Shown here one piece after another: positions 2,846-30,795 of a DNA stretch of 64,000 nucleotides. The notes under the pieces were generated by a model. That model had not been told where the DNA came from. It did no database searches and saw only the letters and a program-made list of their open reading frames with translations. Location of the stretch: positions 12,495-76,494 of the forward strand of contig JAJXZR010000029.1 of NCBI GenBank assembly GCA_021779915.1, read 5' to 3'. Origin of the DNA: a bacterium (GTDB taxonomy: Bacteria; Patescibacteriota; Minisyncoccia; CAIUEV01). Made by a program: the position numbers and the translations under genes. Within the stretch, counting starts at the first letter, position 1, and every line of letters begins with the position of its first letter.

Positions 2846-4000
2846 ATGCGTACTTCCTATTCTTCTCTCAACAATTTTAAAACCTGCCCTCTTAAATATA
2901 AATACAAGGAAATTGACAAAATCAAAGGGAAACAAACCGCAATCCTCGCTTTTGGGAATTTGATGCATAAAACGCTCCGGTTTATTTACACTCCCACTGC
3001 TCATGGTTTTCCTACTAAAGAAGAAGCGATAAATTTTTTCGGACAGAATTGGAAACAGGAAATTTTAATCAAGGAAGGTGAAGAAAAAGGGTATTTTGAA
3101 GACGGGATCAAAATTTTGAGCAACTATATTGATTCCAAAGACGATGCGGAGAGAAACCAAGTGATTGCGCTTGAACACCATTTCAACATTAAAATCGGAG
3201 AACACGACTTGGAAGGATTTATTGACCGAATAGACAGAACTAAAGAAGGTTTTGAGATTATTGATTACAAAACCAGCCAAAAAATTCCCCCTGAAAAAGA
3301 AATTGAGAATGACTTGCAACTCAGTATCTATCTGCGAGCGTTCATCAATGAATGGCCTTCCCTCTTCAAAGAAGTCAAAGAAACTGACAAAATCAAACTA
3401 ACTCTCTATTTTTTGAGACACGACATAAAACTCTCGGCTACTCGAACTAAAAAAGATTTAAAAGATATCGACGAGAAAATTACCGAGCTTATTAATGCAG
3501 TTGAGGAGGCAAAAAAAAATAATAAATTTGATCCGTTCCCTTCTAATCTTTGTGGTTGGTGTGATTATCAGGAAATATGTCCTGTTTGGTCGCACAAATT
3601 CAAACCCGTTTCAAAGGAGCTTGAGGAAAAAGAAATTCAAGAAATAAGTCAAAAGTTTATCAGTCTGCGAGCCAAGAAAAAAGAAATCGAAGGGGAAATC
3701 AGAGAAGTTCAAGAAAAAATTAACAAGTATTTTACCGATACCAAATTGGAGCAGTTTTTCACGGATTTTGGAAGCATTTTAAAGTCGCCTCGCAAAACTT
3801 ACTCTTACAATCCAATCAAGATAGCTGAAATAATAAGACAAATAGGCAAAGACCCGATTTCAGTTATGAAAGTGGACTCTCGGGCTTTAACCGGTCTGAA
3901 AGCAGGATTAGAAAGAGAACAAAAAAAGATGATTGAAGAGGCGAAAGAGTTGGAGAGAGAAGGGTTTGTATTGGTGGTGAAGGGGGATAAGAAAGTTTAA
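2846..4000 (+). CDS. PD-(D/E)XK nuclease superfamily protein (RecB/Cas4-like) with C-terminal Cys cluster and K/E-rich coiled-coil tail
   Basis: RecB/Cas4-like N-terminus (CPLKYKY...), D..E.K-type core (IDRID...IIDYKTS) and CGWCDYQEICPVW cysteine motif. Confidence 0.45.
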   Translation: MRTSYSSLNNFKTCPLKYKYKEIDKIKGKQTAILAFGNLMHKTLRFIYTPTAHGFPTKEEAINFFGQNWKQEILIKEGEEKGYFEDGIKILSNYIDSKDDAERNQVIALEHHFNIKIGEHDLEGFIDRIDRTKEGFEIIDYKTSQKIPPEKEIENDLQLSIYLRAFINEWPSLFKEVKETDKIKLTLYFLRHDIKLSATRTKKDLKDIDEKITELINAVEEAKKNNKFDPFPSNLCGWCDYQEICPVWSHKFKPVSKELEEKEIQEISQKFISLRAKKKEIEGEIREVQEKINKYFTDTKLEQFFTDFGSILKSPRKTYSYNPIKIAEIIRQIGKDPISVMKVDSRALTGLKAGLEREQKKMIEEAKELEREGFVLVVKGDKKV

Positions 4001-24623: not shown

Positions 24624-27600
24624 ATGTCTCTTTCGAAAAAAGTTAGTGGCGGAAAACAGCAAGATTTTGAGGAAATTGCCCTTCGTGATACAACCAGAAG
24701 ATTAAGCAGGGCTTCAGAAGAGGAACAGGCTGCCATTCGAGCGGCTGGGTCCGGTCTTCCTTACCTTGATCTCAATATTTTTCCCGTAGGGGCGGAAACT
24801 TTAAGCATTCTTCCCGAAGAAGTGGCTCGACTAGGAGAAATTACCGTTATCCAGAAAGCGGGACGAGAAATTAAGGTAGGAGTTTTTGACCCCAACAACA
24901 AAACCACTCAAGAAGTTTTGGAAAAGTTGGAAAAAGACGAAGGATATCGTATTAAACTTTACATCGTTTCCAGAACCAGTCTTAAAAGAACTTGGGATAG
25001 ATATAAGCACATTAATCTAGCTTCTTCCCTGGAAGATATGATGCTGACACTTTCTGGCAAGGATTTAGAAAAATTTGAGAACGACATTAAAGAGCTTGTT
25101 GACCTAAAGAAAAGAATCCGGGAACTTCCAACCACCGAAGTATTAAACGTCATTATCGCCGGTGCAATCAAGATGGATGCTAGCGATATCCACACCGAAC
25201 CTCAAAAAGATGATGTTCGCATCCGTTATCGTCTGGATGGAGTTTTGCATGACATTGTCCATATTCCTTACAATTACTACCCTTACGTCCTTTCTCGAGT
25301 GAAAATGCTTTCTGGACTCAAACTCAATATCAAAGACCGTTCACAAGACGGACGTTTTTCCATCAAAACTAACAAGTACGAGATTGACGTTCGTATTTCA
25401 ATCCTTCCGGGAAATTATGGAGAAAACATAGTAATGAGGCTTCTCAACCAAAACGAAACTGGATTCACTTTGGAAGATTTAGGTCTTCGCGGAAGAGCCG
25501 CTGAACAACTGGCTATTCAAATGGCCAAACCTAACGGAATGATTCTTAATACCGGACCTACCGGTTCTGGAAAAACCACCACTCTTTATGCTTGTATCCG
25601 CAAATTGAATTCTCCCGACACAAAAATAATCACTATTGAAGACCCGATAGAATATCGTTTGGCAGGTGTATCCCAAACTCAAGTTCACAAGGAAAGAGGA
25701 TATGATTTTGCTAATGGTCTTCGAGCGATTGTTAGACAAGACCCTGATGTAATTTTGGTTGGGGAAATCAGAGACGAAGAAACGGGAGATATTGCAGTCC
25801 ACGCCTCTTTAACGGGACATCTGGTGCTTTCCACCCTTCACACTAACAGCGCCGCCGGAGCTATTCCTCGTTTGATTGATTTGGGAATCCGGCCTTCTCT
25901 TATCACTCCTTCGATTAATTGTATTATTGCTCAAAGGCTAGTTCGAAAACTTTGTCCTTTTTGCCGGGAAGAATATGTTCCTGCTCAGGAGACTTTAGAA
26001 AGCATGAGTCGCTTCTTGTCGATTATTTCCCCTAAAGCGCGAGTAGAAGTTCCGAAAAATATCACCACTCTTTATCGGGCAACGGGCTGTCCAAAATGCC
26101 ACGGATTGGGATATAAAGGCAGAATCGGAATATTTGAAATTTTTGAAGTCACTCCTTCTATTGAGAAACTAGTTCTAGAAATGGCTCCTGCTTCCGATCT
26201 TTTGGCTGCTTCTATGGAAGAAGGGATGGTAACAATGCTTCAAGACGGAATCCTTAAGGCCGCCGAAGGAATGACTTCGATGGAAGAGGTTGAAAGAGTG
26301 ACGGGATCCGGCCAATACCTGCAAGAAATTTACGAAAAAATTATGGTGCAACTTCTTTCACTCCAGCTAAAAATCACCGCAAAGCAAGGCGAAGAAGTGG
26401 TTGGTTGCGGATATGAAGCAAAAAATATCGCTGACTACATTCAAAAAGCATCAAATAAAGATATTCTTAATTATATTGTGGCTGGAGGGCTTTCTTTCGA
26501 TGCGGGAGATATCCACATGGAACCGCAAGGAGATAGAATAAAAATCCGCTATCGGATTGACGGTATTTTGGAAGATATTACTGATATAAAGGCAAGCGAC
26601 TATTTGCCGGTTCTTTCTCAAATAAAACTACTGGCCGGACTCAAAACCGATTCCCACGCTGCCGTTCAAGACAGTCGTTTTGGGATCAGTCTCGAAACAC
26701 CGATCCGCGACATCCCTAATAAACAAATAGACGTGAGAGTTTCCATTATTACTGGAGGGTATGGAGAAACAGTGGTGATGAGACTTTTGCATAAATCAGC
26801 TCAAGCCCTGGAAGTAGAAAAAATCGGTTTCCGACCACAACTACTGGACAAACTATTACGCGAAATTGAAAAACCCAACGGAATGATTCTTAACACAGGA
26901 CCAACCGGTTCTGGAAAAACTACCACTTTGTACTCTCTTCTTAATCGATTGAATAAACCCGAAGTTAAAATCATCACTGTGGAAGACCCAATTGAGTATC
27001 GCTTGGCGGGAATATTGCAAACTCAGGTTTCAGTTGATGAAGGATACAATTTTGCCGACGCTCTGCGAGCGCTCCTTCGCCAAAATCCGGATATTATGAT
27101 GATTGGGGAAATTAGAGATGAAGAAACGGGAAAAATTTCTATCCAAGCCTCTTTGACAGGGCACTTGGTACTTTCCACTTTGCATACCAACAATGCCGTA
27201 GCTTCTATCCAACGTATGATCAATATGAACATCGACCCCACTGACATCGCCACCGCTACCAACGCCATGATGGCTCAAAGATTGGTCAGAAAGCTTTGTC
27301 CTGTTTGCAAAAAGAAAGTTCCTATTACTCCCGATAACAAAAAAAGATTGGAAGAAATTATTGCCGGAATTCACCCCTCGACTGGAATTTCAATTCCAAG
27401 CAACACAGTTGACTTTCTATATGAACCAGTTGGCTGTTCAGAGTGTAAAAACATAGGTTTCAAGGGAAGATTTCCCGTCGCAGAACTAATGCTAATGACT
27501 CCGACTCTCGAAGAAATGGTAGCCCACTTTGCCATCACTTCTGAAATTGAAAAACAAGCCATCCAAGAAGGAATGCTCACTATGACCCAAGACGCAGCCC

Positions 27601-27659
27601 TCCGCATCGCCGACGGAGAAACCAGTCTGGCCGAAGCAGCGAGATTGACAGAGCTATAA
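24624..27659 (+). CDS. tandem-fused double GspE/PilB-family ATPase (T2SSE_N domain plus two complete ATPase cores)
   Basis: two Walker A motifs GPTGSGKTTTLY at about aa 312 and 754, two Walker B DPDxIxxGEIRDEET boxes, two His boxes GHLVLSTLHTN, two tetracysteine motifs. Confidence 0.8.
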   Translation: MSLSKKVSGGKQQDFEEIALRDTTRRLSRASEEEQAAIRAAGSGLPYLDLNIFPVGAETLSILPEEVARLGEITVIQKAGREIKVGVFDPNNKTTQEVLEKLEKDEGYRIKLYIVSRTSLKRTWDRYKHINLASSLEDMMLTLSGKDLEKFENDIKELVDLKKRIRELPTTEVLNVIIAGAIKMDASDIHTEPQKDDVRIRYRLDGVLHDIVHIPYNYYPYVLSRVKMLSGLKLNIKDRSQDGRFSIKTNKYEIDVRISILPGNYGENIVMRLLNQNETGFTLEDLGLRGRAAEQLAIQMAKPNGMILNTGPTGSGKTTTLYACIRKLNSPDTKIITIEDPIEYRLAGVSQTQVHKERGYDFANGLRAIVRQDPDVILVGEIRDEETGDIAVHASLTGHLVLSTLHTNSAAGAIPRLIDLGIRPSLITPSINCIIAQRLVRKLCPFCREEYVPAQETLESMSRFLSIISPKARVEVPKNITTLYRATGCPKCHGLGYKGRIGIFEIFEVTPSIEKLVLEMAPASDLLAASMEEGMVTMLQDGILKAAEGMTSMEEVERVTGSGQYLQEIYEKIMVQLLSLQLKITAKQGEEVVGCGYEAKNIADYIQKASNKDILNYIVAGGLSFDAGDIHMEPQGDRIKIRYRIDGILEDITDIKASDYLPVLSQIKLLAGLKTDSHAAVQDSRFGISLETPIRDIPNKQIDVRVSIITGGYGETVVMRLLHKSAQALEVEKIGFRPQLLDKLLREIEKPNGMILNTGPTGSGKTTTLYSLLNRLNKPEVKIITVEDPIEYRLAGILQTQVSVDEGYNFADALRALLRQNPDIMMIGEIRDEETGKISIQASLTGHLVLSTLHTNNAVASIQRMINMNIDPTDIATATNAMMAQRLVRKLCPVCKKKVPITPDNKKRLEEIIAGIHPSTGISIPSNTVDFLYEPVGCSECKNIGFKGRFPVAELMLMTPTLEEMVAHFAITSEIEKQAIQEGMLTMTQDAALRIADGETSLAEAARLTEL

Positions 27660-27894: not shown

Positions 27895-30795
27895 ATGTTT
27901 AAAAACAAAAAAACTACAAAAAATCAAAAAATACTGATTATTTCTTTGGTTTTGTTTGTTTTGCTTGTTTCTGTTTTTCTCTGTCTTAATGTGGCAAAAA
28001 AAACCGCTTTAAGAAATGAAGTGACTAGTAAGTTGGAGCTTCAGCATCAAATATCAAAGAATTTAGCGGGAATAACTGAAACTTATAGTTATAATGCCTA
28101 TACAAGCGGAGTACCTATGCATACTGTCTATGAAGATGAGAATTATTTAGGCATTCCGACTGGTGTAAAATCAGATTTTTTGATTATCCCAGATGGCGCA
28201 CAATTGCTTCAGGATTTGGGATATTCAAAATCCGTTTTGGGAAACAATTATCGTACTATGAATGAGGGAAAAGACGTTATTTTTTCATCAAATGCATGGG
28301 ATTATGTCACAAACAAAGAGAGTGGTGAATACACGGGATATAGATTAAGAGATTCCGGGCTGTTTATTCCGTTTGAGGGACTGGATTCGCGGACAACTTG
28401 GGAAAAAACCGCACCCGAATTTTTGGGAGGAAAAACCGCTAGAGAGAAACTTGATGAATTGCAAGCAAGTAACTCTCCAGAGAAAGTCCAATCTCTAAAA
28501 AAAGAACTAACCCCTGGTAGCATTGGAGATGGAAATGGTAATGTTATTCTTGGCACACCTGGTGTTCCTGGTAGTGCTTCAGGAGATACAAATGGGATTA
28601 CAGAAGTAGTCGGTCCAGACAAGCAGACACACAAACTTGATGAGAATGGCAATCCAGTGGTTTTGAACCCGAATACCAATAAATGGGAACCAGACACCAC
28701 TCCCGATGCAACGATTTCTCCATCTAACCAAAAAGATTCAAACAACCAAAATCCGAATCCGGGAAATATGCAGGCAAGTTCTGATCTGAGTGACCAGCAG
28801 GTCGCTTCTGATGCTTATCCTGCCAACGGGTTTCCAACACCTGGTCCAGACAATTCTTTATTATCCACTGCTAAGAAACAAGAAGCGGAGCAGAGGTACC
28901 AAGAAGCTTTGGACAAATATAATAAAGGAGAACTCTCTGCCGACGATTTTTCCTTGGAAAAAGCGCTTTACAGAGGATCATTTATAGAGCCTAAAACTGA
29001 CGAATTAAAACAATTAGAAAAAAACACTTTGGATAGTGCTAATGCTGTTTACAATAATTTTGCTAATTTGTATCCAGAAAGAGCAAAAGAAATACTTGCG
29101 GAGGAAGAAGCGAAAAAAACATATTCGAAGGATGGTAATTCAGGTAATAATCCTCCTTCAGATAATTCTTCCCCGTCTCTCGGAAAATCTGTAGGGGAAT
29201 CTTGGATTAATCCTCCTGCACCCAAAGACATGGCAACTCTGGATGATGCCACAAACAGGTTACTGGGATCGGATGGCATAACAAAAGAAGCGGTAAAAAA
29301 TGCACTTGAACTGTCCAAAAATTACGATAGTTTAGATGATAAACAAAAGGCTTTAGTGGATTCGGTAAACGATTTTATTTCCTATGGTAAGAAAACCACG
29401 GAAAAAGAGCTCGAACAACCTCAATTAAATGTCCTTGAACCTTCTCTTACTGGCAATAAAGTTCGGGAAGAAATGAATGCTTGGAATAAACTGGATGAGG
29501 AACGAACAAAAGCTGGTTTTCCAGATACCACCTCAATTACTCCTTCGAATGACTTTGATAAAGAAGGAGGTACTCTTGAACCCTTTAATGGGGAAGCGAA
29601 ATGGAACGTTGACCCTTCTAAGTTGAATCCGCCAAGCCCTTCTGCCATGGAAGCTTATCAAACTTTGAATGATTTTTCCCAAAATGGTACAGACCCCAGA
29701 AGTTGGTCGGAATATCTTAATCCGCTTGGTCCATCTTTACAGGAAAAATTAAATGATTTACAAAAAACAGCTAGTCTTACTCCCGAGGTTAAGCAATTTG
29801 GTGGCATCGACTTAACTAAAGGGGACGTTTCAGAACCTGTAAAAAAATTGGACGACTATTTTAACAACATGCAAGATCCCCGCAGTTTGTCTGAAAGATT
29901 GAACCCTTTTGGCCCAACAATTGATGAAAAAATAAACTCCTTGGAAAATCAGATTTATGAGGATGAAAGCAAAAAGAAACAAATTTTAAACGGAGCGGAG
30001 TTTAATTACCAAGACGCTCTTTATAAATACGCGAATGGCGAAATTTCTGAGGAAGAAAAAAATAAGGCACTAGAAAAATTTCAGGAGGAAACAGATAAAT
30101 ATTTAAAAGAAACGGCTGTAATTTCTCAAACCACTTCACCAGAAACACTGCCACAAAGCAATTTTGATTTTAATTCTGACAACTCCAATAGTTCACCTGC
30201 CGACAAGGGAAGTGATCGATCAGAGGGACAAAATGTTCAAACCACCGGGGACAGAACGGGGAGTGGGACGACTACTTCAAATTTTTGGGATAGGAATGAA
30301 AATCAATATTCTGGAGAAAATAATTCTGCGGGGGCAAATGAGGTTAAGAATGATAACAGTAGTCAAACACAAACTGTATCCACAGAACCTTATAATTTTA
30401 AAGATAATTTTTCTGCCGGAAACGGGAGTCAGGAGGAACCTTTTGCTGGTTGGACAAACAAAAATATTGCTGAAGCCTTCTCCTATGATGAAAAAACGGG
30501 GGAATTAAAATTAAACGAAGACTGGAAAGAACAGACGGGGCTTCCCGGAGGAGAATATCTTATTATTCCGCCAAGCAAAGCAGAGATCATAAAAGGTCTT
30601 TTTGAAGAAAATAAAATAGATTCACGAACTAAAGATGCTCTTGATAAAAAAAATGAAGCGGGAACACTGAAAAAAGAAATGCCAGAGAATCAAGATGTAT
30701 ACGATCTAAAAAAACAAGAGACTACTGAAGGAAAACCCAACAGCGACAAGTACCGAGAAATGAAAGCAGAAGAGATTCTGAAAACAAGTCAGTAA
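27895..30795 (+). CDS. large membrane-anchored extracellular protein with low-complexity regions and internal repeats
   Basis: N-terminal TM anchor; repeated block DPRSWSEYLNPLGPSLQEKLNDLQK / DPRSLSERLNPFGPTIDEKINSLEN; S/N/G/D-rich segments. Confidence 0.5.
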   Translation: MFKNKKTTKNQKILIISLVLFVLLVSVFLCLNVAKKTALRNEVTSKLELQHQISKNLAGITETYSYNAYTSGVPMHTVYEDENYLGIPTGVKSDFLIIPDGAQLLQDLGYSKSVLGNNYRTMNEGKDVIFSSNAWDYVTNKESGEYTGYRLRDSGLFIPFEGLDSRTTWEKTAPEFLGGKTAREKLDELQASNSPEKVQSLKKELTPGSIGDGNGNVILGTPGVPGSASGDTNGITEVVGPDKQTHKLDENGNPVVLNPNTNKWEPDTTPDATISPSNQKDSNNQNPNPGNMQASSDLSDQQVASDAYPANGFPTPGPDNSLLSTAKKQEAEQRYQEALDKYNKGELSADDFSLEKALYRGSFIEPKTDELKQLEKNTLDSANAVYNNFANLYPERAKEILAEEEAKKTYSKDGNSGNNPPSDNSSPSLGKSVGESWINPPAPKDMATLDDATNRLLGSDGITKEAVKNALELSKNYDSLDDKQKALVDSVNDFISYGKKTTEKELEQPQLNVLEPSLTGNKVREEMNAWNKLDEERTKAGFPDTTSITPSNDFDKEGGTLEPFNGEAKWNVDPSKLNPPSPSAMEAYQTLNDFSQNGTDPRSWSEYLNPLGPSLQEKLNDLQKTASLTPEVKQFGGIDLTKGDVSEPVKKLDDYFNNMQDPRSLSERLNPFGPTIDEKINSLENQIYEDESKKKQILNGAEFNYQDALYKYANGEISEEEKNKALEKFQEETDKYLKETAVISQTTSPETLPQSNFDFNSDNSNSSPADKGSDRSEGQNVQTTGDRTGSGTTTSNFWDRNENQYSGENNSAGANEVKNDNSSQTQTVSTEPYNFKDNFSAGNGSQEEPFAGWTNKNIAEAFSYDEKTGELKLNEDWKEQTGLPGGEYLIIPPSKAEIIKGLFEENKIDSRTKDALDKKNEAGTLKKEMPENQDVYDLKKQETTEGKPNSDKYREMKAEEILKTSQ

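Follow-up and report, generated by a model that had tools for sequence, protein, structure and literature searches.

A PilB/GspE-type ATPase with two tandem cores in a Moranbacteria-like patescibacterium

The 64,000-nucleotide stretch of contig JAJXZR010000029.1 (assembly GCA_021779915.1, positions 12,495 to 76,494), hereafter called the window, contains a gene that encodes two PilB/GspE-type secretion-ATPase cores in a single polypeptide chain. The open reading frame (ORF) is located at window positions 24624..27659 and comprises 1011 codons without an internal stop. The protein can be divided into an N1D, a first core formed by an N2D and a CTD, a 49-residue linker, and a second N2D–CTD core (Table 1). 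The duplicated unit consists of linker helices, N2D, and CTD, and its second copy lacks the N1D. The ORF is one real gene that a Moranbacteria-like patescibacterium has inherited vertically, and both cores belong to the PilB/GspE branch of type IV filament ATPases, which is extension-type and zinc-binding. We favour, with a probability of about 0.55, an arrangement in which three fused chains would form a six-core ring in one plane, a trimer of covalent heterodimers, docked on a trimeric PilC-type platform.

Architecture and conservation of the fused ATPase

The Pfam family MshEN matches the protein once and T2SSE twice, in accordance with the earlier note on this DNA, which had described one N-domain followed by two complete secretion-ATPase cores. 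The same note placed the junction near nucleotide 26330. The last residue of core 1 is 561 (nucleotide 26306), and the linker follows at nucleotides 26307–26453.

A search of 5.8 billion clustered proteins, from which the best 120 matches were taken up, identified among these at least 117 clusters of full-length fused orthologues with lengths of approximately 1005–1031 residues and identities of 55–83%; some more have identities of 45–49%. The clusters are drawn from independent NCBI, ENA, JGI, and Logan assemblies, and where the organism is named it belongs to Moranbacteria/Moraniibacteriota, Parcubacteria, or Patescibacteria. An identical protein is present on four contigs, one of them in GCA_021833695.1. 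Alignments spanning the junction show an uninterrupted double-core ORF in at least seven GTDB species genomes, beside many single-core matches. The inter-core linker is 49 residues long in 97 of 133 double-core proteins and 44–52 residues long in nearly all of them. Conservation across many assemblies and assemblers, the constant linker length, and the lack of a long DNA repeat between halves that are 45% identical exclude for practical purposes that an error of sequencing or assembly or a frameshift merged two neighbouring pilB-like genes, or that a duplication was collapsed. The earlier claim that the gene is neither an assembly duplication nor a frameshifted pair thus holds, since the catalytic residues are also kept, and the search for other fused PilB proteins in Patescibacteria found the same architecture throughout these clusters.

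Some records that contain clear members of the family, among them L010 (CAZMSR010000020.1) and that of protein P0058, bear the labels 'uncultured Gammaproteobacteria' or 'Candidatus Bathyarchaeia archaeon'. The labels outside Patescibacteria are probably errors of binning or taxonomy assignment and not real occurrences. Another candidate double-core gene, at locus L043, matched over the junction with 28% identity, but it is an ordinary single-core gene that adjoins pilC.

The Pfam T2SSE profile (PF00437) scores 746 bits over the whole protein, in two stretches, against a cut-off of 24.9. The NCBIfam models of GspE (TIGR02533) and PilB (TIGR02538) score 893 and 866 bits against cut-offs of 630 and 676, respectively; these scores are sums over two stretches, and a single core by itself would score close to the equivalog cut-offs or under them. 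Among PDB sequences, the best matches are to PilB of Geobacter and Myxococcus, to GspE, and to PilF of Thermus. The chain has the profile of the PilB/GspE branch, the Walker A, Asp box, Walker B glutamate, and His box, the tetracysteine motif, the N2D and CTD fold with arginine fingers, and the N1D. It departs from the branch in carrying more than one core per chain and in being encoded apart from pilC, pilM/N/O, or pilin genes. The tetracysteine zinc motif is not known from PilT-type retraction ATPases. The identity of the protein as a PilT/PilU retraction ATPase was ruled out, as the PilT model (TIGR01420) reaches just 349 bits summed over the two cores, compared with 866–893 bits for the extension-type models, and both the zinc cysteines and the N1D are present. 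A 2024 review of PilB (PMC11656802) calls the zinc motif conserved and essential. Patescibacteria lack an outer-membrane secretin (PMC6744442), and a classical role in type II secretion is therefore unlikely; assembly of a type IV pilus or a competence-like filament is more likely. Where the fused orthologues are named in public databases, they are called 'GspE/PulE family protein'.

Residues 136–560 and 577–1009 align with 45.4% identity (BLASTP of half against half, E 4e-139), far beyond chance and within the range of approximately 40–50% estimated previously. Identity is 41% between the two N2Ds and 54% between the two CTDs. Core 1 has the Walker A motif GPTGSGKT at residue 311, the Asp box at 338, and the His box GHLVLSTLH at 398; in core 2 these motifs are at 759, 786, and 846, respectively. 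The CxxC pairs are at residues 444 and 489 in core 1 and at 892 and 938 in core 2, and GEIRDEET occurs in both halves. From the list of motifs that the earlier note assigned to both cores, the Walker A, Asp box, His box, and tetracysteine are indeed present twice; the DPD form of Walker B is limited to core 1, because the corresponding region of core 2 reads NPDIMMIGEIRDEET, with Asn821 in place of the first aspartate. At the level of DNA, the halves share only patches of 72–86% identity, in a register of 1344 nucleotides in the CTD and 1323 nucleotides in the N2D, and their comparison revealed no long exact repeat by which an assembler might be misled. The difference in register reflects a seven-codon insert in the second N2D. 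The conventional single-core pilB that the earlier note had reported in the window was also recovered; its 593-residue product is 42% identical to core 1 and 41% identical to core 2.

The roles of individual residues were mapped from Geobacter PilB (McCallum et al., PMC5424180) using PDB alignments and counted in 117 members of the family. All 117 proteins retain in core 1 and core 2, respectively, the Walker A lysine (K317 and K765), the magnesium-binding glutamate of the Asp box (E343 and E791), the Walker B glutamate (E381 and E829), the threonine preceding the His box (T397 and T845), the two histidines of the His box (H399 and H406; H847 and H854), and three arginines (R257, R272, and R441; R705, R720, and R889). 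All eight cysteines of the two zinc motifs are equally invariant, and the pore-loop glutamate (E386 and E834) is conserved in 115–116 of the 117 proteins. Because of this full conservation, both cores look catalytically competent, with every residue for ATP binding and hydrolysis kept, and the two sites are not identical. The aspartate D373 of core 1 and the asparagine N821 of core 2 are each present in 117 of 117 proteins and constitute a fixed asymmetry. The position equivalent to Arg257 of Geobacter metallireducens PilB is occupied by histidine (66 proteins), arginine (43), or glutamine (7) in core 1, and by arginine in core 2 of all 117. The identity of orthologues to the window protein is 0.65–0.68 in core 1 and approximately 0.55–0.59 in core 2; judged from these sequences, core 2 evolves faster than core 1.

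The structure of the whole chain predicted by AlphaFold2 (AF2) from a 66-sequence alignment has a mean predicted local distance difference test score (pLDDT) of 82 and a predicted template modelling score (pTM) of 0.47. Confidence is thus high within the domains but not in how they are placed relative to each other. Residues 131–139 and 561–580 form hinges of low confidence. The latter hinge is followed by helices (residues 581–611) that resemble those ahead of the first N2D. A construct composed of the first CTD, the linker, and the second N2D, predicted from a 15-sequence alignment, reached a pLDDT of 71 and a pTM of 0.50. In Foldseek comparisons, PilB and PilF structures (PDB: 5TSG, 5OIU, 5TSH) match with target-normalised TM-scores (TMt) of 0.91–0.93 and deviations of 2.1–2.9 Å, and each of the matches covers one core.

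Table 1. Features of the fused ATPase gene and of associated loci. Positions refer to the window unless another locus is named; residues are those of the fused protein.
Feature	Position	Strand	Basis
Single-core pilB paralogue, 593 aa, same genome	11994..13775	+	Pfam/NCBIfam
Extended -10-like promoter element (putative) TGCTATAAT, ~40 nt 5' of start codon	24574..24582	+	direct reading
Fused PilB/GspE-type ATPase gene, 1011 aa, 112.2 kDa, stop codon included	24624..27659	+	ORF read
N1D (MshEN / T2SSE_N), residues 44-128, sole copy, before core 1	24753..25007	+	Pfam PF05157, E 2.6e-7
N1D-N2D linker helices, residues 129-169, homologous to inter-core linker	25008..25130	+	BLASTP half alignment (starts 136 vs 577), AF2 secondary structure
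Core 1 N2D, residues 170-285; arginines R244, R257, R272	25131..25478	+	
Core 1 CTD, residues 286-561; Walker A 311-318, Asp box E343, D373, E381 (DPD...GEIRD), His box H399/H406, Zn cysteines C444/C447/C489/C492	25479..26306	+	
Inter-core linker, residues 562-610, 49 aa; low-confidence hinge 561-580, then helices	26307..26453	+	length conservation, AF2 pLDDT
Core 2 N2D, residues 611-733; invariant R685, R705, R720	26454..26822	+	
Insert of ~7 aa in core 2 N2D, near residues 690-697	~26691-26714	+	DNA repeat register shift 1323 -> 1344 nt
Core 2 CTD, residues 734-1009; Walker A 759-766, Asp box E791, N821, E829 (NPD...GEIRD), His box H847/H854, Zn cysteines C892/C895/C938/C941	26823..27650	+	
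DHH-family genes, 35-69% mutual identity	L002 8782-9909; L004 8761-9879; L089 8126-9301; L090 5414-6556		
LTD proteins	L002 5864-8131; L003 14632-16215; L004 16947-19355; L006 15665-16882; L012 2623-5241 (also OB-fold match); L089 13358-15424; L090 16641-19016		

Rarity and origin of the double-core layout

The double-core layout is rare among relatives of the protein. An exhaustive HMMER scan of 1.84 billion representatives clustered at 50% identity (E <= 1e-30) identified 15,688 relatives, of which only approximately 13 (P0121–P0132 and P0134) are about 980–1018 residues long and matched over their full length. The next matches are ordinary single-core proteins of 540–620 residues, which are always closest to core 1.

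In a neighbour-joining tree of 207 cores (100 bootstraps), the nearest neighbours of core 1 within the main family are other first cores, and those of core 2 are other second cores. This grouping by position indicates one old event followed by vertical descent. The deep nodes, on which the distinction between an internal duplication and the fusion of two paralogues would rest, have less than 35% support.

Near the best matches, the layout has at least three further independent origins. Two of them are double-core PilB-like proteins whose cores are each other's closest relatives: P0130 (995 residues), with cores 74% identical, and P0129 (994 residues), with cores 55% identical. The third, P0136, is a single representative of 1047 residues from a GC-rich organism and contains a PilC/GspF-type T2SSF fragment (residues 118–203) ahead of two T2SSE cores. 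The Walker A motif of its first core reads GPTGSGTTT and has lost the lysine, and the protein may be a fusion of a platform domain, a pseudo-ATPase, and an ATPase.

The only higher multiple observed is a triple-core member of the same family as the window protein, 1460 residues long (P0011; locus L002 10001–14383 on a 77-kb contig of JGI 3300022698) with Walker A motifs at residues 314, 761, and 1211. Its middle core is 70–75% identical to core 3 in the N2D and 55–70% identical to core 1 at the C terminus. Such a chimeric core, in which the N2D of core 2 is combined with the C-terminal part of core 1, is a signature of unequal crossing-over, and its sequence is consistent with the origin of the triple core by this process within a double-core gene. 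Two triple-core chains would likewise total six cores.

Proposed assembly of the motor

In PilB rings, each N2D packs on the CTD of the adjacent chain (PMC5424180). Three tandem chains would satisfy all of the N2D–CTD 'packing unit' contacts of a normal PilB hexamer and would form a ring of approximately 336 kDa in which core 1 and core 2 alternate. The platform PulF/PilC has been modelled as a trimer with six alternating cytoplasmic domains, each of which binds one ATPase N2D (PMC10790770; also PMC11656802). On a trimeric platform with alternating Cyto1 and Cyto2 domains, alternate positions of the ATPase are therefore inherently non-equivalent. The ring would dock on a PilC-type trimer whose gene would be at another site in the genome, and the Cyto1 and Cyto2 domains would each contact one kind of N2D, which would result in a 3:3 complex instead of a 6:3 one. 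ATP turnover at two slightly different types of sites would then drive the assembly of a type IV pilus or a competence-like filament. The fusion would fix the 1:1 stoichiometry and the alternating order of the cores and would thus leave them free to specialise: core 1 would provide the sole membrane-anchoring N1D, and core 2 would be the faster-evolving partner, with its D-to-N change and N2D insert.

Several observations fit the in-plane ring. Divergence between the two cores is greatest in their N2Ds, C3 'ocococ' states of the ring exist in this ATPase family according to titles of PDB entries, and the observed numbers of cores per chain, two and three, are both divisors of six. A trimer of heterodimers with specialised subunits, as proposed in the earlier note, is plausible in that it would match both the core-specific differences and the published model of a trimeric platform.

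Other observations weigh against the in-plane ring on a PilC-type platform. Many tandem P-loop ATPases of other families stack as two rings. The AF2 monomer models (pTM 0.47 and 0.50) do not commit to a relative placement of the cores. Genes for PilC, PilM, and pilins are never adjacent to the fused gene in the 10 neighbourhoods compared (the window and nine others). In the Parcubacteria metagenome-assembled genome GW2011_GWE2_39_37, the canonical pil operon (L060 6435–14172), which is composed of a single-core pilB, pilC, a pilin gene with an N-methylation motif, pilM, and pilN, already has its own PilB, and the fused gene is located on a separate contig (L012 8507–11536). The presence of this separate operon identifies the fused ATPase as an extra, orphan motor that is distinct from the PilB of the operon. 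Finally, the PilB hexamers solved to date are C2-symmetric, as stated in PMC11656802, and an (AB)3 ring can only approximate this symmetry.

A more specific form of the in-plane ring is put forward tentatively. The fused protein would be a natural single-chain motor whose (AB)3 ring pairs 1:1 with the PilC trimer, each N2D being dedicated to one PilC repeat, and the sites would fire in a fixed alternating order. A triple-core (ABC)2 ring would in turn hard-wire the three-state C2 cycle seen in PilB crystals.

Alternatively, six chains could form a stacked double ring of coaxial core 1 and core 2 hexamers, with the membrane-proximal ring in contact with the platform and the distal one acting as its regulator or booster. 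Tandem P-loop modules joined in one chain usually stack in separate rings, as in KaiC, p97/NSF, ClpB, and EccC. These proteins belong to other ATPase clades and resemble the fused ATPase in having several P-loop modules per polypeptide, with functional asymmetry possible. Most known examples of in-plane rings with covalent links are engineered, such as single-chain ClpX. The 49-residue linker with its flexible hinge at residues 561–580 is long enough for stacking, and the low pTM leaves the geometry open. However, a distal ring would be out of reach of PilC and PilM, yet the pore-loop glutamate and N2D arginines of core 2 are strictly conserved. Both N2Ds, the domains modelled to contact the platform, have been maintained, and the best-scoring solved structures include no stacked ring of PilB, PilT, or GspE. 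We consider stacking unlikely.

The fixed differences between the two sites could also reflect a bifunctional motor, in which the cores are specialised for extension and retraction, or for priming and elongation, and replace a PilB/PilT pair. A single ATPase, CpaF, drives both directions in Tad pili (PMC11656802), and no PilT-like gene was found in the 64-kb window. Against this, both cores are of the PilB/GspE type and contain the tetracysteine motif, with the bit scores of the GspE and PilB models far above that of the PilT model, and genomes of the candidate phyla radiation (CPR) in general encode PilT (PMC6744442), which makes such a division of labour rather improbable.

The suggestion that one of the cores is a non-catalytic scaffold or regulator, a pseudo-ATPase comparable to the non-catalytic subunits of F1/V1-ATPases, is more doubtful again. 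It draws on the faster evolution of core 2, on the invariant D-to-N change beside its Walker B motif, and on the independently derived P0136, whose loss of the Walker A lysine demonstrates that degeneration of one core does happen in a double-core architecture. In the fused family, by contrast, none of the 117 proteins departs in either core from the Walker A lysine, the Asp-box and Walker B glutamates, the two histidines, or the arginine fingers.

Genomic neighbourhood and relation to known systems

In the window, the fused gene is preceded by ksgA and a divergent tRNA-Gly gene. The 207-nucleotide spacer between the tRNA gene and the fused gene contains the element TGCTATAAT, the sequence of which suggests a promoter of the fused gene; a scan for consensus promoters in its vicinity gave only weak two-hexamer matches. 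On the 3' side lies a 966-residue ORF (27895–30795, + strand) with an N-terminal hydrophobic segment and long acidic, low-complexity stretches rich in asparagine and serine. It has no significant Pfam or NCBIfam match, only one Pfam hit below the threshold, and the same pairing of genes occurs in GCA_021833695.1 (L001). Scans of the 64-kb window for prepilin motifs and with six-frame hidden Markov models, together with Pfam searches of the neighbouring genes, revealed no prepilin-motif ORF, pilC, pilM, or third T2SSE gene.

The single-core pilB of the window is also an orphan, located between small unknown ORFs and ftsW/rodA, and a check of the small ORFs on its 5' side for pil partners found none. 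The N terminus of its product has a sub-threshold match to the MshE-type motif for binding cyclic di-GMP (NF053729; 31.6 bits against a cut-off of 38), and no match to this model was found in the fused protein. Elsewhere in the window, a gene at 2846–4000 (+ strand) encodes a 384-residue protein with a PD-(D/E)XK nuclease domain and a domain of 'TOTE conflict systems' that resembles Mu Gam/Sipho_Gp157. This gene may be phage-derived or defence-related, and the region around it is otherwise housekeeping.

The neighbourhoods of the fused gene in other genomes have recurrent components of their own. In several lineages, a gene for a DHH-family phosphoesterase-like protein of approximately 375 residues is positioned on the same strand, 90–120 nucleotides 5' of the fused gene, and in L012 and L088 its place is taken by a conserved 327-residue protein without a family match. 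Proteins with LTD domains, approximately 400–870 residues long, are encoded within about 7 kb of the fused gene. Five of them have the order LTD-PKD-LTD, and those of L003 and L006 are shorter and LTD-only. Four loci have ruvB just 3' of the fused gene, and several (L003, L004/L005, and L088) have ruvC in the vicinity as well. The ruvB/ruvC/LTD neighbourhood may reflect synteny of the lineage or a link to DNA handling. Searches of the window with tblastn found neither the DHH-like and LTD neighbours nor the 327-residue protein, and ruvB and ruvC do not occur there.

Each core of the fused protein has the same N2D and CTD fold as PilB of Geobacter metallireducens (PDB: 5TSG, 5TSH, 6OLJ) and Myxococcus (PDB: 3JC8) and PilF of Thermus (PDB: 5OIU, 6F8L), and shares with them the Walker A, Asp box, atypical Walker B, His box, arginine fingers, pore glutamate, zinc site, and N-terminal MshEN-type N1D. 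It differs from them in having two cores with one N1D, in N821 replacing a conserved aspartate, and in the location of its gene outside a pil operon. The solved PilBs are homohexamers of single-core chains, and Thermus PilF multiplies its N-terminal domains and not the core. The relationship to GspE/EpsE/PulE (PDB: 1P9R, 4KSS, 4PHT) is equally close by sequence score (TIGR02533) and fold, and the core is duplicated only in the fused protein. Nanosynbacter lyticus TM7x (Saccharibacteria) has more than one extension ATPase for type IV pili, PilB1 and PilB2 (PMC11623550). The window resembles TM7x in containing a second, single-core pilB; however, the PilBs of TM7x are single-core proteins within their own pil loci, whereas the two cores of the fused protein are parts of one chain encoded by an orphan gene.

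The platform follows the same logic as the proposed ring. PilC/GspF, which belongs to a different protein family, is internally duplicated, with two T2SSF repeats, and has been proposed to form a pseudo-six-fold trimer; the model of this trimer is based largely on AlphaFold predictions and crosslinking. In TadB/TadC, the halves of the platform are separate genes and form a 'trimer of hetero-dimers' (PMC10790770). Such a platform would have its cytoplasmic equivalent in the fused ATPase.

No description of a fused, tandem, or duplicated PilB layout was found in literature searches in the contexts of CPR, Moranbacteria, and Parcubacteria, which left most subscription journals uncovered, and term searches found no mention of it in the 2024 PilB review (PMC11656802) or the Saccharibacteria pilus paper (PMC11623550). 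The novelty is in the recognition and analysis of the architecture, and not in a new fold or chemistry, as the sequences are already public under generic names.

The coupling of PilB/GspE rings to the platform, the symmetry of the ring, the order in which the sites fire, and the equivalence of neighbouring subunits are still debated, and current views rest on C2-symmetric crystal structures and AlphaFold models of the trimeric platform. A natural covalent dimer fixes the neighbours of each subunit, and would represent a case in which evolution tolerated and then exploited non-equivalent alternate positions, as the 3:6 platform-to-motor arrangement predicts. A mutation in one core would alter every second position of the ring, which otherwise requires engineered linked constructs. 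If the (AB)3 and (ABC)2 rings exist, they would be natural experiments from which the real symmetry of the type IV filament motor and the order of its subunits could be read. In Patescibacteria, type IV pili play a central part in the episymbiotic way of life, and the fused family marks a second, orphan motor in Moranbacteria-like lineages.

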